64,000 bases of DNA, taken from NCBI GenBank assembly GCA_000004695.1, contig CM000155.2, positions 2,720,001 through 2,784,000 of the forward strand, written 5' to 3'. The position numbers were made by a program, and so were the translations under genes. Shown piece by piece: positions 53,963 through 62,182 of the stretch. Position 1 is the stretch's first letter. Each line of letters opens with the position of its first letter. The notes below the pieces were generated by a model. It was not told the origin of the DNA, did no database searches, and was given only the letters and a program-made list of their open reading frames with translations. This stretch comes from Dictyostelium discoideum (Eukaryota).

Positions 53963-54065
53963 AATATTTTATTGAATAAATAAAATAAAATAAAATAAAA
54001 TAAAATAAAGTTATAAACATAAAAAAAGACCATTAAACTGTAAAGTTTTAATAGATCTTATAAAA

Positions 54066-54174
54066 ATGGAAGAACAATTTCCAACACCACCAATATCATC
54101 ACCTCAAGAAGAACCACTTCTAACTCAACAATTTGATAATGAGTTATACCAACCCCAACAACCCCAACAACCCC

Positions 54175-54215
<41 letters not shown>

Positions 54216-54219
54216 CCCC

Positions 54220-54284
<65 letters not shown>

Positions 54285-54875
54285 GAAGAACAACAAAGAC
54301 AACAACCACTACGACAACAACAACAACAACAACAACAATTACCATTACCATCACCATCAAAATCAGGAGGAGGAACAAATGTAGGATTAAATAAAAGAGA
54401 TGGAATGTTTCTAATTAAAGATATACCAAGAGAAGAATATGAAAGGATTAGGGAATATAAAGTAAATGGTAGTTTTATACAATGTTTTTCAATTTCAGAA
54501 TTAAAAGAAGAGATTAGAAGAAGAGAACCATCTGGAAACATTCAAGGTAAAAAAATAGATTTAATAAGAAGGTTAATTTCAATTTGTGATGGTGGTGTTT
54601 CCTCAGTAAATAAAAGAGTAAGATCAGCAACTGATGATGATGATGATTATGGTGCGCCAAAAAAAAATAATTTAAAACGTAAAAAAAAATATAAAAAATC
54701 TAGAGATATAGCTTTACCATCAATCGATACAACTGATGATGATGATGATGATGATGATGATGACGATGATAATAATAATAATAAAGAAAAAGAACAACAA
54801 AAAGAAGATGGTAATCAAGAACATGAAAATGGTCATAATCATGAGAATGGTTTAAATAATAATGTTAATAATAAT

Positions 54876-54911
<36 letters not shown>

Positions 54912-55953
54912 TTTAAAACTGGCAAAAGAGGTCGTCCACCTAAAAATTCATCAGCATCATTATCATTATCATCATATAAAAAGAAAAATAAAATAAGGAG
55001 TAAAAATAAAAATAAAGATAGTGATAGTGATAATAATTTAACAGATTCAGATACATTTAGTAATGAATATTCATCATCAGGATCAGAATCATCAGGATCA
55101 GAATCGGATAAAGAGGAACCATTATCAAAAGAGATAAATTATTTAAAACAACAATTGAAATCTAAAGAGATGGAAAAAGATATGAAAAAGAAAACCAAGG
55201 AAATGAAACAATTACAAATGAAAATTAAAAGTCAGAATAGAAAAATTCAAAAATTAAAAGCATTAAATTTAAATAACCTCTATTTGGATAACAATAGCAT
55301 TGTGGAAGACAGTTGTGATTTTGCATTACAACTATTTGAAAGGGTTTCCAGTCAATTCAAATACCAACACATATCTAAAAAGGTCAATGATGAACCCAAT
55401 GAAAATAAAACAAAAACTCATTCAGAGTTTATCAGATTCATTGTATTGAAAGTAATGAACTCTGATTTCGATTATAATCAACCAACTAAGTTAATACCAT
55501 CACCTCTTATATTTCTCTATTGGAAGAAATTGGTACTCGATACTCATAGGTATAGACATTTCAGTAAGATTTTAGGCTATGATATACCATTTAAAGTATC
55601 GGATAAAAAGGATCTAAACGATCCTGAAAAACATGATCATTGGCGTTCAAGATATCAATACACTATCTCCCAATATAAAAAATATTTCCCTGATGTCGCT
55701 TACGATGTTTTCGGTGATATCACCTTAAAAATTGTTGCCAAACCCGATTCAAATTGGCCATTAGATTATTTAAAATTTTCAACTTACTCAACTCCTTTAC
55801 CAATTATTAATAATTATAAAATTAATTCATCATTTACAAATGATTATGAAAATAATCAATTATTTTCAACACCACCATTATCTATTTCAACACCATTTGA
55901 TAATAATAATAATATTAATAATAATAATAATATCAATAATAATAATAATAATA

Positions 55954-56010
<57 letters not shown>

Positions 56011-56742
56011 TCACCAAAAATACAACATCAACTACTTCAAGTTCAACAACAATTAATCCATCATCTTCTTCTTCTCCTTCTTTAGAATATTTATTATCTA
56101 ATCCTTTACAATATGAACCATCAAAAACTCCACAACAAATTTTAGATCAACTTCAACAACAAAAACAACAAACAGGTTCACCACAAAAACAAAATCCTCA
56201 ATTGAGAAATACAAAACAAAGACAACAACAGCAACAAATACTTCAAGAGTTTCAACAACAAGAACAACTATCAGTACATATCCCACCTATTCAAATTCCA
56301 CTTACACCAGTAGCACCACATAAAACTGCCACTATTGCCTCTCCTTTACCAAATATTATTAATACACCATCATCAGCAACATCATCATCATCAGCAACAG
56401 CAGCAACTACAACTACAACTACTATAGCACCTTCAACACCATCATCATCTCTAAATACACCACACTCTGAAAAAAAACAAATTAAACATATCACACTTTC
56501 AGTAAAGAGTAATGAGAGTGAAGTATTTATAAAGGTTGCTGAAACAACAGCATTGGGAAGATTAATTAATGCTTATTGTCAAAAGATGGGTATTCAAAAG
56601 AGTTTAAATTCTTTTAAATATAAAGGTAAAGATATTGAAACTAGTAATCCTAAAGAATTAGGTATGAAAGAAAATGATGTTATTGATGTTATACCACTCA
56701 ACGCTTCAACTTCATCTATTGATAATGGAAGTGGTCCTTTGG

Positions 56743-56830
<88 letters not shown>

Positions 56831-57149
56831 TAATAGTAATAATGATAATAATAATGATAATAATAATAATGATAATAATAGTAATAATAATAAAGATAAT
56901 AATAATAATAATAATAATGATAATAAAAATAAAGATAACAATAATAATAGTGATAATAATAATAATAAAGATAATAAAAATAATGATATTAACAATAATA
57001 ACAATAATAATAATAATAATATTAATAGTAATGATAATACTAATAATATTAATAATAATACATCATCATCATCAAATGATTCATCTGCAACAACAGCAAC
57101 ACCTACTCAAACTTCTTCTATTTTATCATCTGGTTCAATTGAGGCATAA
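54066..57149 (+). CDS. Nuclear protein (1027 aa) with a SAP domain, an AT-hook, long Q/N/D tracts and a C-terminal SUMO-like domain (Esc2/Rad60/NIP45-type architecture).
   Basis: SAP motif FIQCFSISELKEEIRRREPSGNIQGKKIDLIRRLISI. AT-hook KTGKRGRPPKNS. C-terminal IKHITLSVKSNESEVFIKVAETTALGRLINAYCQKMGIQKSLNSFKYKGKDIETSNPKELGMKENDVIDVI aligns closely with the SUMO core (...KMTTHLKKLKESYCQRQGV...[29 protein letters not shown]) but lacks a C-terminal GG. Confidence 0.7.
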
Positions 57150-57485
57150 AAAGAACAAAATCAAAATCACCAATAATACATCTAAATCAAGATAAAACTT
57201 ATATTGAAATTAAAACTTAATAATCTTTAATCAATAAATTATTTTTTGTACAAAATTTTTTCTCTTTTTTTTTTTTATTATTTATTTATTTATTGAGTTG
57301 AATTTAAAAATTAGTGTTGAATGAGTTAAATTCAACACTAATTTTGGAGTTTGGAATTAATATTAGGATCTTTTTTTTTTTTTTTAATAACATCACTCAA
57401 TTTGGGTGTGTTCTAGGGATTTTGTAGTTTTTTTTATATCATATAGGATCAAATACACGTGATTGAAATCTATATTTCACAAATA

Positions 57486-57557
57486 TCCTTGTTGGTCTAG
57501 TGGTGAGGATTTTCGCCTGTCACGCGAAAGGCCCGGGTTCAATTCCCGGACAGGGAG
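57486..57557 (+). tRNA. tRNA-Asp (anticodon GUC).
   Basis: TCCTTGT TG GTCT AGTGGTGA GGAT T TTCGC CTGTCAC GCGAA AGGC CCGGG TTCAATT CCCGG ACAGGGA G. Confidence 0.85.
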
Positions 57558-57876
57558 CTTTTAAATCAAAATTATTTTTACGAACTTCCTAAAAAACTTA
57601 AATTTCTATTACGAATAACTAAAAAAACACTACAGTTGATCAAACGGATACTAGATACAGAAAAACATATCCATCATCAATCTAACATCAACTACATTCA
57701 ATCTATCTACTCTACACACTAATTCCTTCAATCCTTGGATTGGGAATAAGAATAGATCTGAATAAACGAGAAAGAAAAAAAAAAAAAATAAAAATAAAAA
57801 TCAAAATTTTTATATAAACACATAATTAAAAAAAAAAATAATAAAAATAATATAAAAAAAAAAAAAAAAAAAAAAA

Positions 57877-58545
57877 ATGAATTTTTTCGATAAACTTAAA
57901 GGTGAACTCAACTTAGGCGAAGAAGAGTTAAATAAAAAAACTATTCAAATAAGGTTATTCTACCCACATACCTTGGAATTAAATAGTAATTCAACAAAAT
58001 TAATAGATAATTTCATAGTTAATGGTACTCTTAACATTGTCAGAAGACAAAAGGGTATAACAGTATTCGGTAGAATACTAAAAGAAAAATTCACATTATT
58101 ACACGAGTGTTACAGCACTTTCAAGTATGAAGATTTCCCACTGCAAAAATTCATACTTTACACCCCAGGATATCACTATGTCCACTTCTACACATTTACA
58201 AAAAACATAATAAAAAAAATAAACAATCAAATGGTAAAAGAAAACTGGGGATTGGAGCCATTACTAATAGATGAATGCAACATAGTAATGCTACCAGATG
58301 TGATTAGATATTCATGCATACTATTATTTAATAAAGAAGATGATATCTCAATCATTAAAACAAACATTGATGCTATAAAAGGTAGTAAGCATCCAATAAG
58401 AGCCTTCATCTCTGAATATAACAATAAAGAAATAAGAGATGTTAGAAAAAAAAAAAACACAAGTAATAAAAACCAACTACAAATACAACTAAATCAATAC
58501 CATCAACTCCACCAACAACTAATGCATCAACAACCACACCAATAA
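57877..58545 (+). CDS. TRE3-type ORF1 protein (222 aa).
   Basis: First ORF of the element, followed 190 bp later by ORF2 in a different frame. Ends in a Q/H-rich tail. Confidence 0.65.
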   Translation: MNFFDKLKGELNLGEEELNKKTIQIRLFYPHTLELNSNSTKLIDNFIVNGTLNIVRRQKGITVFGRILKEKFTLLHECYSTFKYEDFPLQKFILYTPGYHYVHFYTFTKNIIKKINNQMVKENWGLEPLLIDECNIVMLPDVIRYSCILLFNKEDDISIIKTNIDAIKGSKHPIRAFISEYNNKEIRDVRKKKNTSNKNQLQIQLNQYHQLHQQLMHQQPHQ

Positions 58546-58738
58546 CAACCACACCAATAACAACCACACAAACAACAACCACACCAACAACAACCACACA
58601 TCAATTACCAACAAGCAATACAACAATCTACAACCTAAACAAAACTACTACTACTACTACTACTACTACAAAACCTATCAATAAAATTACTACAAGCAAT
58701 GGTACCAAGTTTCCAATTGCCAGTAGTATTAGAAAATA

Positions 58739-61700
58739 ATGGAACAATTAAAATTATTACTATGGAACTGCAGAGGTAATCAATCAACCAACGCTAAGAA
58801 TAAAACAGAAGAAACGATAAAAAGAATTGGCACTCAATTAGCACTCCTAACTGAAACTAATTTCAATGGATTCAACCACCACAAAACAATGTTCAACTTT
58901 GAAAGAATAGATCATGGTTCAGGTAAAGGGACTGGCATAGCAATAGAAAATAGAGATACAAGAAAAGGCCACATATCAATAAACTTCAAAGACGATGATG
59001 GTAGAATACTATCAATTAAATACAATTCCTTTAATTCTATCAACATATTATTGATCTATGCTCCAGCGACTATATCTGAAAGAAACACCTTCATAATCAA
59101 CTCAAAATCACTGTTTAAAAAATATAATTCAATCAACCATCAAATAATAGCAGGCGACTTCAATAACAACCACGATTGCAACAGCTTCTTCGGTACTGAA
59201 TTACGTAAAATAATAGACCAAGACATGCTTCTAGATACTGGTATTGAAGAAAACACTCAAACATTTCCAAGATCAATGAAGAGACTAGATAGAATCTACT
59301 GTCATCCAACACTACTAAACCAAAATTCAAAACTGGTAGTCCACAACACAGTATTTAACAAATCAGATCACTTTCCCATCACAATCACAATACAAACCAA
59401 CAGAGAAACAACAACAACAACAACAACCAAACTAGAAAGACTCCCTTGGACATTATGTAAAGAAATTCTCAACAACAAACATATACATGATGGGTTATCA
59501 GAATTAATCAGTAAGAACAAAGATAAGATCAAATCAGTGGAGGAATGGACGAAATTTAAAAATAATGTCATCAGAGATTATTTAAAAAAAGAACAAAACA
59601 AAATAAAGAAAGAAAAGAACAAAAGAAAATACGTAATCCACAAATTACTTGGAAATAGTGATATCATTCCAAAGATGAGAAAAGAACTCAATGAAGAAAT
59701 AAGTAGAATATTAGAAGAAGAAAGAAAGGTAAAAGCATGGGATATCAAATTAAAACTCCACCTGCATCAAGAAACACCAAGCAAATACCTCACAAGTATC
59801 CTTAAATCCAGAGCCAAAGATAAATCAATATTCCAAATAAAAGATAAAGATAATAAGACCATATCAGATAAAGAGAACATAGCAAAAAGATTTGTTGAAT
59901 TCTATCAAGATCAATATGAAGAGAAAGAAGATAACGAAGAAACCCACAAGAAGTTATTAGAAAAATGGGAAGTAGACGTTGATTTAATCAAGAAACTCGA
60001 GATAGACAGACCGATAAGAATACATGAAGTGACCAAAGCAATCAAAACTTCAAGTATCCACAAATCTCCAGGTTTAGACGGTATCAATGCACTATTCTAC
60101 AAGTACCACATCAACTCAATAGCAAGAATATTGACTATAGCTTTCAACGACCTCCTCACAAATAAGAAAGAAATCCCCACAAAATTCAAAGAAGGAGTAA
60201 TAACAACAATATTCAAAAAAGGAGATGAACTAAACATTTCAAATAGAAGACCAATCACCCTTCTCAATACAGATTACAAAATTTTAAGCAAAATTCTCAA
60301 CAGTAGATTATTAGATATCACCAGTAAAATTATCAACAAATTTCAAAACGGCTTTGTTCCAAACAGGTTCATCCAAGACAATATTCAGATCATGAAGGAA
60401 GTAATAGAAATAAGTAACAAAAGAAAGAACAATACACTCATTACCTTTTACGATTTTAACAAAGCATTCGATTCAATCAGCCACAAGAGTATCACAAGAA
60501 CATTAGAGCATATTGGTATCCCCCCAAAATTCACAGCGATCCTACTAAACCTACTCAAAGATACTAAAAACAAAATAAAGATCAACGACTTTTTAGTCAA
60601 TGGAATAACAATCAGAAGAGGAACAAAACAAGGAGACCCAATATCACCAACAATCTTTGCTCTAGTTTTAGAACCACTTCTAATAGATATCATCAATGAT
60701 AATACAATCAAAGGCTTCACTCTACCAAATTCCAAATCATTAAAACTCACTGCATTTGCTGACGACATAGCAACATTTACAAACTCCACTGAAGAACTAA
60801 TGAAAATTAATACTAAAATCCAAAAGTACTGCTCAGCAACATCATCATCGTTAAACAAAGAGAAAACAGTAATGATAGCAATAGGAGATAAACCACACGA
60901 TCTACCATTCCAAGAGAGTACAGTCCCAGAAAGATATCTTGGCCTCAATTTCACCAAAACAGGTTTAAATTCAAAATACAACACTTTAATCCAAGAAATG
61001 AAAAACAATCTAATCAAATGGAAATCACAAGCAATAACGATGAAGGCAAAGATGACAATTCTCAAAACATACGTTCTATCCAAATTAACATACCATCAAT
61101 ACATGGATAATCTAAATGAAGAACAAATTGAGGAAATCAATAACATGACCAGATGGTTCTTATTCTCCTCAGTTAAGAATACATATACAGAAGAGAGAAA
61201 ATACAAAACTATGATGAAAATAGACAGAGCATATGCAGATTGGAAAGAAGGAGGCATAAAATTATGGGATATAGAACTAAGACATATAGCATTCAAAATC
61301 TGGTACATGAACAGGCTACTCCATAACAACTACAACAACAACAACAATACCTTACAAGAATGGTACATGGAGCAATTAAGTAGAAAAAAAGCCCACACTT
61401 CAACCCTCAACGATATGTGCAGACACTGGGGTGTATTCAGAGTCAAATTTTACCAAAACCATCCAAAGATAAATGAACTTCCAGACTGTATAAGAAACGA
61501 CAATGACGAACCACTAAAACTAAAAGAAATTTACGAACTCATGATCAAAGACAGACACCCAACACCAAGAAGAACAGAATGGCAGAAGTTATGGGCGGTG
61601 AGATACAACACAGCAATACCCAAAGTATTCATAAACATCAACAGCATTTCTCACCAAAAAGGTAGAAACACCCTCTTCAGATTCTTCTCAAGATCACTTC

Positions 61701-62182
61701 CAGGTATCAACCACGAAAGAGACACCAGATGCAAGATCTGTGGCCACCTATTCAGAGACCCTTATTCTCACCTCTTCACTCTATGCCAAGATATCCTAGA
61801 TATTGAAAAAACCATCATATCAACAGTTAACAAATTATCATTCATCAAAATCCACAGATGGTCAATGGATACCTTAGACATATCAAAATACAACAGAACT
61901 GAGAGAATCTTCCCCAATCTCATAGGAATAATAGCACACCAATTATGGAAGATAATCTGTCACAAATTGTTCAACACTGATGAAAGCAAACCAGAGCCAA
62001 AATTCGAGCAAAAGGTCATAGAAACAGAATTACTAAATCTCATCGAAACTGAAAAATTCATCACACTAAAGAAAATCAAACACGACGAAGCAATACTAAA
62101 AAACACCAATCAAGATCTTCACAAATACAAATTCAACAAAGCCTGGCAAACCCCAGCAGCTCCGAACCCTCTTCCAATTTAA
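58739..62182 (+). CDS. TRE3-type ORF2 polyprotein (1147 aa): N-terminal APE-like endonuclease, reverse transcriptase, C-terminal Cys/His motif.
   Basis: The N-terminal region (LLWNCRGNQSTNAKNK...LALLTETNFNGFNH...IAGDFNNNHDCNSFFG...RLDRIYCHP...SDHFPI) carries the endonuclease. RT motifs: KSPGLDGINALFY, FYDFNKAFDSISH, FADDIATF. C-terminal CKICGHLFRDPYSHLFTLC. Confidence 0.85.
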   Translation: MEQLKLLLWNCRGNQSTNAKNKTEETIKRIGTQLALLTETNFNGFNHHKTMFNFERIDHGSGKGTGIAIENRDTRKGHISINFKDDDGRILSIKYNSFNSINILLIYAPATISERNTFIINSKSLFKKYNSINHQIIAGDFNNNHDCNSFFGTELRKIIDQDMLLDTGIEENTQTFPRSMKRLDRIYCHPTLLNQNSKLVVHNTVFNKSDHFPITITIQTNRETTTTTTTKLERLPWTLCKEILNNKHIHDGLSELISKNKDKIKSVEEWTKFKNNVIRDYLKKEQNKIKKEKNKRKYVIHKLLGNSDIIPKMRKELNEEISRILEEERKVKAWDIKLKLHLHQETPSKYLTSILKSRAKDKSIFQIKDKDNKTISDKENIAKRFVEFYQDQYEEKEDNEETHKKLLEKWEVDVDLIKKLEIDRPIRIHEVTKAIKTSSIHKSPGLDGINALFYKYHINSIARILTIAFNDLLTNKKEIPTKFKEGVITTIFKKGDELNISNRRPITLLNTDYKILSKILNSRLLDITSKIINKFQNGFVPNRFIQDNIQIMKEVIEISNKRKNNTLITFYDFNKAFDSISHKSITRTLEHIGIPPKFTAILLNLLKDTKNKIKINDFLVNGITIRRGTKQGDPISPTIFALVLEPLLIDIINDNTIKGFTLPNSKSLKLTAFADDIATFTNSTEELMKINTKIQKYCSATSSSLNKEKTVMIAIGDKPHDLPFQESTVPERYLGLNFTKTGLNSKYNTLIQEMKNNLIKWKSQAITMKAKMTILKTYVLSKLTYHQYMDNLNEEQIEEINNMTRWFLFSSVKNTYTEERKYKTMMKIDRAYADWKEGGIKLWDIELRHIAFKIWYMNRLLHNNYNNNNNTLQEWYMEQLSRKKAHTSTLNDMCRHWGVFRVKFYQNHPKINELPDCIRNDNDEPLKLKEIYELMIKDRHPTPRRTEWQKLWAVRYNTAIPKVFININSISHQKGRNTLFRFFSRSLPGINHERDTRCKICGHLFRDPYSHLFTLCQDILDIEKTIISTVNKLSFIKIHRWSMDTLDISKYNRTERIFPNLIGIIAHQLWKIICHKLFNTDESKPEPKFEQKVIETELLNLIETEKFITLKKIKHDEAILKNTNQDLHKYKFNKAWQTPAAPNPLPI

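Follow-up and report, generated by a model that had tools for sequence, protein, structure and literature searches.

To our knowledge, proteins with an integral SUMO-like domain (SLD) are few, and the characterised ones, Rad60, Esc2 and NIP45, all act through the backside of the E2 enzyme Ubc9. Here we analyse a gene on chromosome 6 of Dictyostelium discoideum AX4 that encodes a protein of 1027 amino acids (aa) with such a domain. The gene lies in a stretch of 64,000 nucleotides (GenBank assembly GCA_000004695.1, contig CM000155.2, positions 2,720,001 to 2,784,000), which we refer to as the window, at positions 54066-57149 of the forward (+) strand; all coordinates below are those of the window and of this strand unless marked otherwise. 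Working from the letters of the sequence, an initial annotation had presented the protein as a candidate genome-stability factor of the Esc2/Rad60/NIP45 type, equipped with a SAP motif and an AT-hook.

A polar N-terminal region and, after it, two SLDs in tandem that reach the C-terminus define the RENi family, which includes S. pombe Rad60, S. cerevisiae Esc2 and mammalian NIP45/NFATC2IP (PMC549199); the plant members have one SLD. The second domain, SLD2, uses a conserved acidic residue to bind the Ubc9 backside, and this binding is abolished by Smt3-D68R or Esc2 D447A/D449A (PMC7849368). RENi proteins additionally carry SUMO-interacting motifs (SIMs) in their N-terminal part, and a region that binds DNA is present in Esc2 (PMC7849368). 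Another described protein, SDE2, is a chromatin-associated regulator of replication stress that has both a ubiquitin-like domain (UBL) and a DNA-binding SAP domain (PMC5131917, PMC9399289). The D. discoideum protein resembles SDE2 in combining a UBL with a SAP or SAP-like element, but the order is reversed: in SDE2, the UBL is N-terminal and the SAP domain C-terminal. Moreover, the UBL of SDE2 is cleaved after Gly-Gly in a PCNA-dependent manner, SDE2 has no GRDP-like domain, and there is no detectable homology between the two proteins beyond generic folds. Finally, plant GRDP1 and GRDP2 (DUF1399, PF07173) contain a helical domain, with the motif ...SP..ID..WH.H.L.T..Y..., that is distantly homologous to the middle domain described below, but they differ from the D. 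discoideum protein in having glycine-rich regions and no UBL. The phenotypes reported for them relate to stress, to auxin and to the size of seeds (PMC4299439, PMC8585784, PMC13001069), and they provide no known biochemical activity that is transferable to the 1027-aa protein.

From the domains assigned in this work, we infer localisation, DNA binding and partner choice as follows. With a probability that we put at roughly 45%, the protein is a scaffold of the nucleus, tethered to DNA or chromatin, and carries a permanent SUMO mimic, for which SIM-containing proteins are likelier partners than Ubc9. In such a scaffold, a SAP-like motif, an AT-hook and a basic KRKKK cluster would tether the protein to AT-rich DNA, a coiled coil would multimerise it, and a degenerate GRDP-like domain may provide a non-catalytic binding module. 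The SLD would then be a SUMO mimic that cannot be removed, and it would recruit SIM-containing partners rather than the E2.

The SUMO likeness of aa 807-876 (56484..56693) is far beyond chance. The Pfam model Rad60-SLD (PF11976) matched aa 809-876 when the whole protein was searched (E 2.4e-10; 40.5 bits, cut-off 23.8) and scored 47.3 bits on the isolated segment; the Pfam ubiquitin model reached only 24 bits. A UBL profile built without the query recovered aa 807-876 with an E value of 4.9e-18. In a phmmer comparison with all PDB chains, the best 60 matches were all SUMO1, SUMO2 or Smt3 (E 1e-8 to 1e-19), and no RENi SLD was found among these 60. By BLASTP, 31 of 75 positions are identical to human SUMO1 (41%, E 5e-16); in our alignments, the identity to SUMO1 is 39-41%, versus at most 28% to the UBL of any paralogue. 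Additionally, the SUMO signatures YCQxxG and PKELGMxxxDVIxV are kept. These results show that aa 807-876 form a true SUMO-fold domain that is nearer to SUMO itself than to the UBL of any paralogue, with SUMO proper (human SUMO1/2 and yeast Smt3) as its closest sequence relatives. The fold proposed by the initial annotation was thus recovered by both Pfam and the profile. Its placement in the last ~70 residues of the protein was not, as the sentence that followed in the same annotation implied by adding an Asn/Asp-rich tail of about 150 aa; on the basis of composition and comparison with relatives, this tail is indeed present and spans 151 aa (aa 877-1027; 56694..57146).

In contrast to SUMO proper, the SLD is internal and has Ser-Thr in place of Gly-Gly: SUMO1 G96-G97 align with S881-T882, no Gly-Gly follows the fold, and the nearest glycines are those of a non-adjacent N-G-S-G at aa 886-889. 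Since the domain is internal and lacks Gly-Gly, it can be neither processed nor conjugated, which agrees with the earlier view of an integral domain without di-Gly that is not a SUMO precursor. The opposite possibility, a SUMO precursor or giant conjugatable UBL whose processing would uncover a C-terminal Gly, would find a precedent in some distant relatives whose sequence ends in QQGGC or LRLRGC immediately behind the UBL; given the Ser-Thr at the Gly-Gly position and the 151 aa that extend past the fold, we consider it extremely unlikely. The tail is specific to the 1027-aa protein, and the UBL lies at most 12 aa from the C-terminus in 22 of the 26 UBL-bearing relatives.

Two surfaces of the SLD bear on its choice of partner. 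At the position of the acidic residue of SUMO that contacts the E2, the alignment places Lys853 (FKYKG), which corresponds to Smt3 D68, SUMO1 E67 and SUMO2 D63 (FLYDG, FLFEG and FRFDG, respectively). An acidic residue at this position was found only in P0039, a distant relative, among 10 related UBLs aligned, and the UBLs of the dictyostelid paralogues all have K, N, Y, T or R there. The second surface is the SIM groove, for which we rely on the residue roles established by structural work on SUMO. The positions aligned between SUMO1 and the SLD are F36 with I822, K37 with K823, V38 with V824, L44 with L830, K46 with R832, L47 with L833, Y51 with Y837 and R54 with K840. Most positions are therefore conserved or conservatively replaced, and the alignment suggests that the hydrophobic groove is largely kept, as are most of the hydrophobic groove residues of SUMO proper. 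The combination of a largely kept SIM groove with a charge reversal at K853 makes SIM-containing partners more probable than a role as an E2 cofactor in the manner of RENi proteins.

According to the RENi-type reading, the SLD would dock on the Ubc9 backside and promote sumoylation at replication or repair structures. The likeness to RENi proteins is real in several respects: a non-conjugatable SLD without di-Gly that exceeds the threshold of the same Pfam model, a long N-terminal half that is polar, charged and of low complexity as in RENi proteins (PMC549199), a presumed nuclear, DNA-associated setting, and motifs of DNA-binding type, which recall the DNA-binding region of Esc2 (PMC7849368). 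The following observations speak against it. The protein has only one SLD, and it is not C-terminal; a search of the protein with the UBL profile for a second, cryptic SLD (SD1 of RENi proteins) found none, Pfam also reports a single SLD, and the globular domain upstream of it is all-alpha and GRDP-like, not a second beta-grasp. Lys853 occupies the Smt3-D68 position, which is acidic in RENi SLD2, and a regular-expression scan of the disordered N-terminal half, which lies outside the folded segments, found no hydrophobic core of SIM type. The best PDB matches described above are likewise all SUMO proper. In addition, another D. discoideum protein, JC3V1_0C0008_11033, of ~449 aa, whose two SLDs (230-340 and 340-449) extend to its C-terminus, has already been named as the RENi homologue (PMC549199); compared by published layout, this two-SLD arrangement is incompatible with the 1027-aa protein, which moreover has a SAP-like motif, a coiled coil and a GRDP-like domain that the RENi layout lacks. 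The single non-terminal SLD, Lys853, the absence of an N-terminal SIM and the separate published homologue led us to reject RENi membership, so that the Esc2/Rad60/NIP45 type proposed initially does not hold. As far as can be judged from sequence, a RENi-like mechanism is unlikely, and we assign a low probability to a RENi-type role as a whole.

Upstream of the SLD, aa ~405-570 are not of low complexity and contain a domain of about 130 aa that the initial annotation had left unnoticed. Its core (aa ~412-545), together with the motif WPLDYL (aa 565-570), spans 55299..55775 and was assigned as an all-alpha GRDP-like/UCP032817-like domain based on phmmer, profile and hhalign comparisons and an AlphaFold 2 model. 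A phmmer search of 1.8 billion representative proteins returned 12 matches (E 4.8e-16 to 1e-3), headed by a paralogue that is 36% identical; eight of the 12 relatives are of dictyostelid type. Six dictyostelid relatives are from D. firmibasis, D. dimigraforme and D. cf. discoideum or are D. discoideum DDB_G0278103 and Tieghemostelium lacteum DLAC_01270 and DLAC_07958, one further dictyostelid-type sequence is known from its EukProt entry alone, and other relatives are one protein of Cavenderia fasciculata and one of a dinoflagellate. A profile of the domain (A1) retrieved 426 proteins, annotated in Pfam mostly as PF27765 (UCP032817-like) and also as PF07173 (GRDP-like/DUF1399), which include many proteins of Allomyces, Catenaria and Rhizophlyctis as well as stand-alone bacterial proteins of 167 aa. 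Comparison of the Dictyostelium clade with the bacterial GRDP-like proteins by hhalign gave a probability of 82% (E 1e-5). The PF07173 threshold (22.7 bits) is passed by the bacterial protein P0060 (27.1) and the dinoflagellate protein P0010 (34.9); the domain of the 1027-aa protein itself stays under it. Through these intermediate comparisons, the middle domain is shown to be homologous to GRDP-like domains. Its AlphaFold 2 model has six helices, with a predicted local distance difference test (pLDDT) score of 76 and a predicted template modelling score (pTM) of 0.74.

In an alignment of 116 sequences (A3), the motif D...WHxH...HH is near-invariant, i.e., at least 90% conserved. Its columns D79, H83, H85 and H105 read F483, K487, L489 and F509 in the 1027-aa protein, and the loss of these positions is common to its closest paralogues. 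An alignment of this degenerate clade (A4) has 18 invariant columns, including WKK and WPLDYL. Because the Asp and His positions are lost and yet 18 columns are invariant, the domain is constrained but degenerate, and it is probably non-catalytic. A match of the middle domain to DUF6601 was dismissed as noise (Pfam E 0.02-0.04; 14-15 bits, cut-off 27).

Our alignments place the 1027-aa protein in a family that joins a GRDP-like/UCP032817-like domain to a UBL and that is expanded in dictyostelids. The architecture common to the dictyostelid relatives consists of a SAP-like start, a charged region of low complexity (which in the 1027-aa protein holds the AT-hook), a coiled coil, the GRDP-like domain, a low-complexity linker and a C-terminal UBL, and it is conserved in several dictyostelid genera. 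Direct phmmer matches to members with both domains range from 1e-5 to 5e-16. The members Cavenderia fasciculata DFA_05895, T. lacteum DLAC_01270 and DLAC_07958, Allomyces AMAG_00079 and Catenaria BCR44DRAFT_1443619 share the two-domain core and its order with the 1027-aa protein, and a C-terminal ubiquitin or Rad60-SLD domain is present in many Allomyces proteins and in a Catenaria protein. Most relatives with both domains keep WHxH...HH, and their UBL ends the protein, often with Gly-Cys. The 1027-aa protein instead has WKKL...PF, like D. firmibasis RB653_009360 and DDB_G0278103, and it differs from the family relatives in its far more SUMO-like SLD and its long Asn-rich tail.

The conservation of this pairing across eukaryotes raises the main competitor of the SIM-scaffold proposal, namely that the UBL and the GRDP-like domain form a coupled, inherited two-domain module in which the UBL may serve the GRDP-like domain, and that the SUMO-likeness is incidental to the SUMO pathway. 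The UBL could, for example, be an intramolecular partner, a regulator or a substrate of the GRDP-like domain. Both domains occur together in 26 relatives (from dictyostelids, Allomyces, Catenaria, a dinoflagellate, and metagenomes or transcriptomes); in the 22 mentioned above, the UBL stands close to the C-terminus, the fusion is kept while the UBL type ranges from ubiquitin-like to SUMO-like, and many of these UBLs have a conserved terminal Cys. However, the two features that might mark an active module, the His motif and the terminal Gly-Cys, are both absent from the 1027-aa protein, ~230 aa of low complexity separate its two domains, and its SLD is unusually close to SUMO, both in its 41% identity to human SUMO1 and in its retained signatures. 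This closeness suggests constraint on SUMO-specific surfaces, and we therefore regard the coupled module as a serious but doubtful explanation for this protein.

A further and rather unlikely possibility goes beyond these readings. The protein may be a 'dead', chromatin-targeted derivative of an undescribed eukaryotic UBL system in which a GRDP-like domain with a His motif is coupled to its own C-terminal UBL, typically ending in Gly-Cys at the place of the Gly-Gly of ubiquitin and SUMO; the coupling could consist of self-processing, thiol chemistry or a non-canonical attachment. The Dictyostelium lineage would have lost the His motif and the terminal Cys, whereas a SUMO fold of near-canonical form, with a charge reversal at the residue that faces the Ubc9 backside, would have been retained or gained anew. 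Tethered to DNA, the protein would then serve as a SUMO decoy for SIM readers but not for the E2.

Several further features of the family were observed. At least 12 members have a UBL with a terminal Cys at the position of the second Gly of ubiquitin or SUMO (LRLRGC, RLSGC, QQGGC, LRAC); the relatives with such a UBL end are P0009, P0010, P0019, P0022, P0024, P0033, P0039, P0041, P0046, P0062, P0064 and P0071. Two members, P0033 and P0062, have a canonical ubiquitin at their N-terminus. T. lacteum DLAC_01270 (P0003, 1465 aa) consists of two tandem modules, each with a SAP-like motif, a coiled coil, a GRDP-like domain and an SLD, followed by ~590 residues, and its second SLD is the paralogue UBL nearest to that of the 1027-aa protein (28% identity). 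In D. discoideum AX4 itself, DDB_G0278103 (P0002, 384 aa) has a SAP-like start, a coiled coil and a degenerate middle domain (WKTL), and it stops right after this domain, without a UBL. At least six members lie on a single contig of Allomyces macrogynus (1,031,938 bp; AMAG_10621-10656), and two adjacent family genes 700 bp apart were found in Catenaria (L005, 1784-3813); this local clustering indicates tandem expansion of the family in Blastocladiomycota. In Pseudomonas (L001, 3068-5504; L002, 2035-4504; also L003 and L004), a gene for a 167-aa UCP032817-like/GRDP-like protein closes a conserved five-gene cassette, in which it is preceded by genes for three proteins of ~190, 111 and 240 aa and for a 93-aa ParE-like toxin. 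The cassette adjoins a type I restriction-modification S subunit and the PADLOC candidate defence gene PDC-S11 (E 3.5e-158). These neighbours suggest that the bacterial members belong to defence islands or mobile elements, and nothing in this context is transferable to the 1027-aa protein.

The proposed tether to DNA rests on motifs in the N-terminal half. The AT-hook (aa 285-296; 54918..54953) has the core KRGRPPK (aa 287-293), and a [KR]GRP core arises in 0.5% of shuffles of the protein. The SAP-like helix-loop-helix region (aa ~133-176, KVNGSFIQCFSISELKEEIRRREPSGNIQGKKIDLIRRLISICD; 54462..54593) was predicted to contain two helices, 143-156 and 161-179, in a low-confidence model. Its best score with Pfam SAP (PF02037) is 11.5 bits (E 0.25), which covers the second helix only and is below the gathering threshold of 23.9; SAP is nonetheless the sole Pfam family matched, sub-threshold, by aa 118-182. 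No SAP domain was found when the N-terminal segment alone was compared with the PDB by phmmer. A profile built from the corresponding N-terminal motif in six copies of the family (A2) did better: against the PDB, it ranked the Tho1 SAP domain first (E 3.1e-3), ahead of SAP-like FluMu gp35 and MANF-C. Pfam SAP is matched by three of the six copies (best E 6.5e-4), and other copies match HeH/LEM and ARMET_C; paralogue P0003 scores 21.8 bits with Pfam SAP. Given the sub-threshold Pfam score and the support from relatives, we describe the region as a divergent SAP-like motif and not as a SAP domain that passes the threshold. The SAP motif named by the initial annotation is thus weakly supported, and the AT-hook that it also named is present in its core, with a Pfam AT_hook (PF02178) score of 13.9 bits that falls short of the 17.4 cut-off. 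Between these two motifs, a basic cluster that resembles a nuclear localisation signal (KRKKKYKK, aa 204-211) precedes 12 consecutive Asp (aa 224-235; together 54657..54773), as identified by composition.

A Lys/Gln-rich long helix, probably a coiled coil, occupies aa 353-400 (55122..55265), as indicated by the full-length model and the paralogue sequences; a long Lys/Gln-rich helix also precedes the middle domain in the paralogues. The full-length single-sequence AlphaFold model is poor (pLDDT 38), and the helices 353-364 and 367-400 are its top-scoring part (pLDDT 54-76). More than 60% of the protein is of low complexity. This includes an N-terminal poly-Gln/Pro segment (aa ~28-93; 54147..54344; entropy 0.6-3.0 bits; 36 Gln in 40 aa) and, according to composition and the full-length model, an Asn-, Ser/Thr- and Gln-rich linker before the SLD (aa ~600-805; 55863..56480).

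Such a composition would suit a fast-evolving, largely disordered gene whose SLD has no specific function, either as a decaying paralogue or as a fortuitous fusion with a SUMO fragment. The loss of the catalytic-looking motif of the middle domain agrees with this, as does the failure to find the exact 1027-aa protein, or any orthologue more than 50% identical to it, in two large protein collections, one of them with 15 billion proteins. The collections hold AX4 genes that neighbour it without the 1027-aa protein itself, and single-sequence homologue searches with the middle domain and the SLD returned no match, not even to the query, so that the word index itself was probably limiting. Against decay, the reading frame is intact over 3 kb, the SLD is undisrupted and still 41% identical to human SUMO1, the paralogues of the degenerate clade have 18 invariant columns in common, and several dictyostelid genera share the architecture. 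We consider this explanation very unlikely.

A number of points weigh against the proposal of a DNA-tethered scaffold read by SIM-containing partners. In the SIM groove, two basic residues of SUMO1 are lost, K39 being replaced by A825 and H43 by A829, and for this reason SIM binding by the SLD is not assured; what is said here of the SIM groove, and likewise of the interface with Ubc9, derives from alignment and not from a structure of the SLD. Both the AT-hook and the SAP-like motif score below their Pfam thresholds. The widely conserved pairing with the GRDP-like domain suggests that the UBL may serve that domain instead of the SUMO pathway, and the modelled fold of the middle domain had no match in the PDB, i.e., it is a fold without a solved relative. 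Lastly, our literature search (DUF1399, GRDP with ubiquitin-like, and candidate DDB_G identifiers) found no paper on the family, the fusion or the gene. Automatic annotation already labels the paralogues 'Rad60/SUMO-like domain-containing protein', and the middle domain is already in Pfam.

The gene is a single uninterrupted open reading frame (ORF) in one exon, with 1027 codons plus a stop, the start context AAAATG and an upstream spacer of 6-9% GC. It lies between DDB_G0293334 and DDB_G0293348, and exact matches were obtained for the flanking ORFs DDB_G0293334, DDB_G0293340, DDB_G0293348 and DDB_G0293350. Five long ORFs overlap it in other frames or on the opposite strand, at 54058-54541 (-), 54133-54384 (+), 55840-56085 (+), 56594-57004 (-) and 56674-57195 (+); they encode poly-Val, poly-Cys, poly-Ile and poly-Leu, and are by-products of CAA/AAT codon repeats, not genes. 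A tRNA-Asp(GTC) gene is located 340 bp past the stop codon (57486-57558, +). A further ~320 bp downstream, a gag-like ORF (57877-58545, +; DDB_G0293348) clusters with the D. discoideum 'Gag' protein Q9Y1H4, and it is followed by a reverse-transcriptase ORF (58739-62182, +; DDB_G0293350). Together, the ORFs at 57877-62182 look like a tRNA-gene-targeted (TRE-type) non-LTR retrotransposon inserted beside tRNA-Asp(GTC).

The individual pieces of the 1027-aa protein are known; what is new among proteins with SUMO-like domains is its distinct architecture, together with a mode of action that is predicted to differ. Its SLD is nearer to SUMO than are the SLDs of Rad60, Esc2 and NIP45, yet the charge of its E2-binding residue is naturally reversed, and it is accompanied by motifs of DNA-binding type. 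If the proposal is correct, the protein would represent a natural separation of function, in which SUMO mimicry is read out through SIMs only. The protein also links the SUMO/ubiquitin fold to the widespread GRDP-like/UCP032817-like family of plants, fungi, protists and bacteria, and the repeated fusion to a UBL, which we did not find described in the literature searched, offers a handle on the function of the GRDP-like domain. Since D. discoideum is genetically tractable, these predictions would be directly testable in the organism itself.

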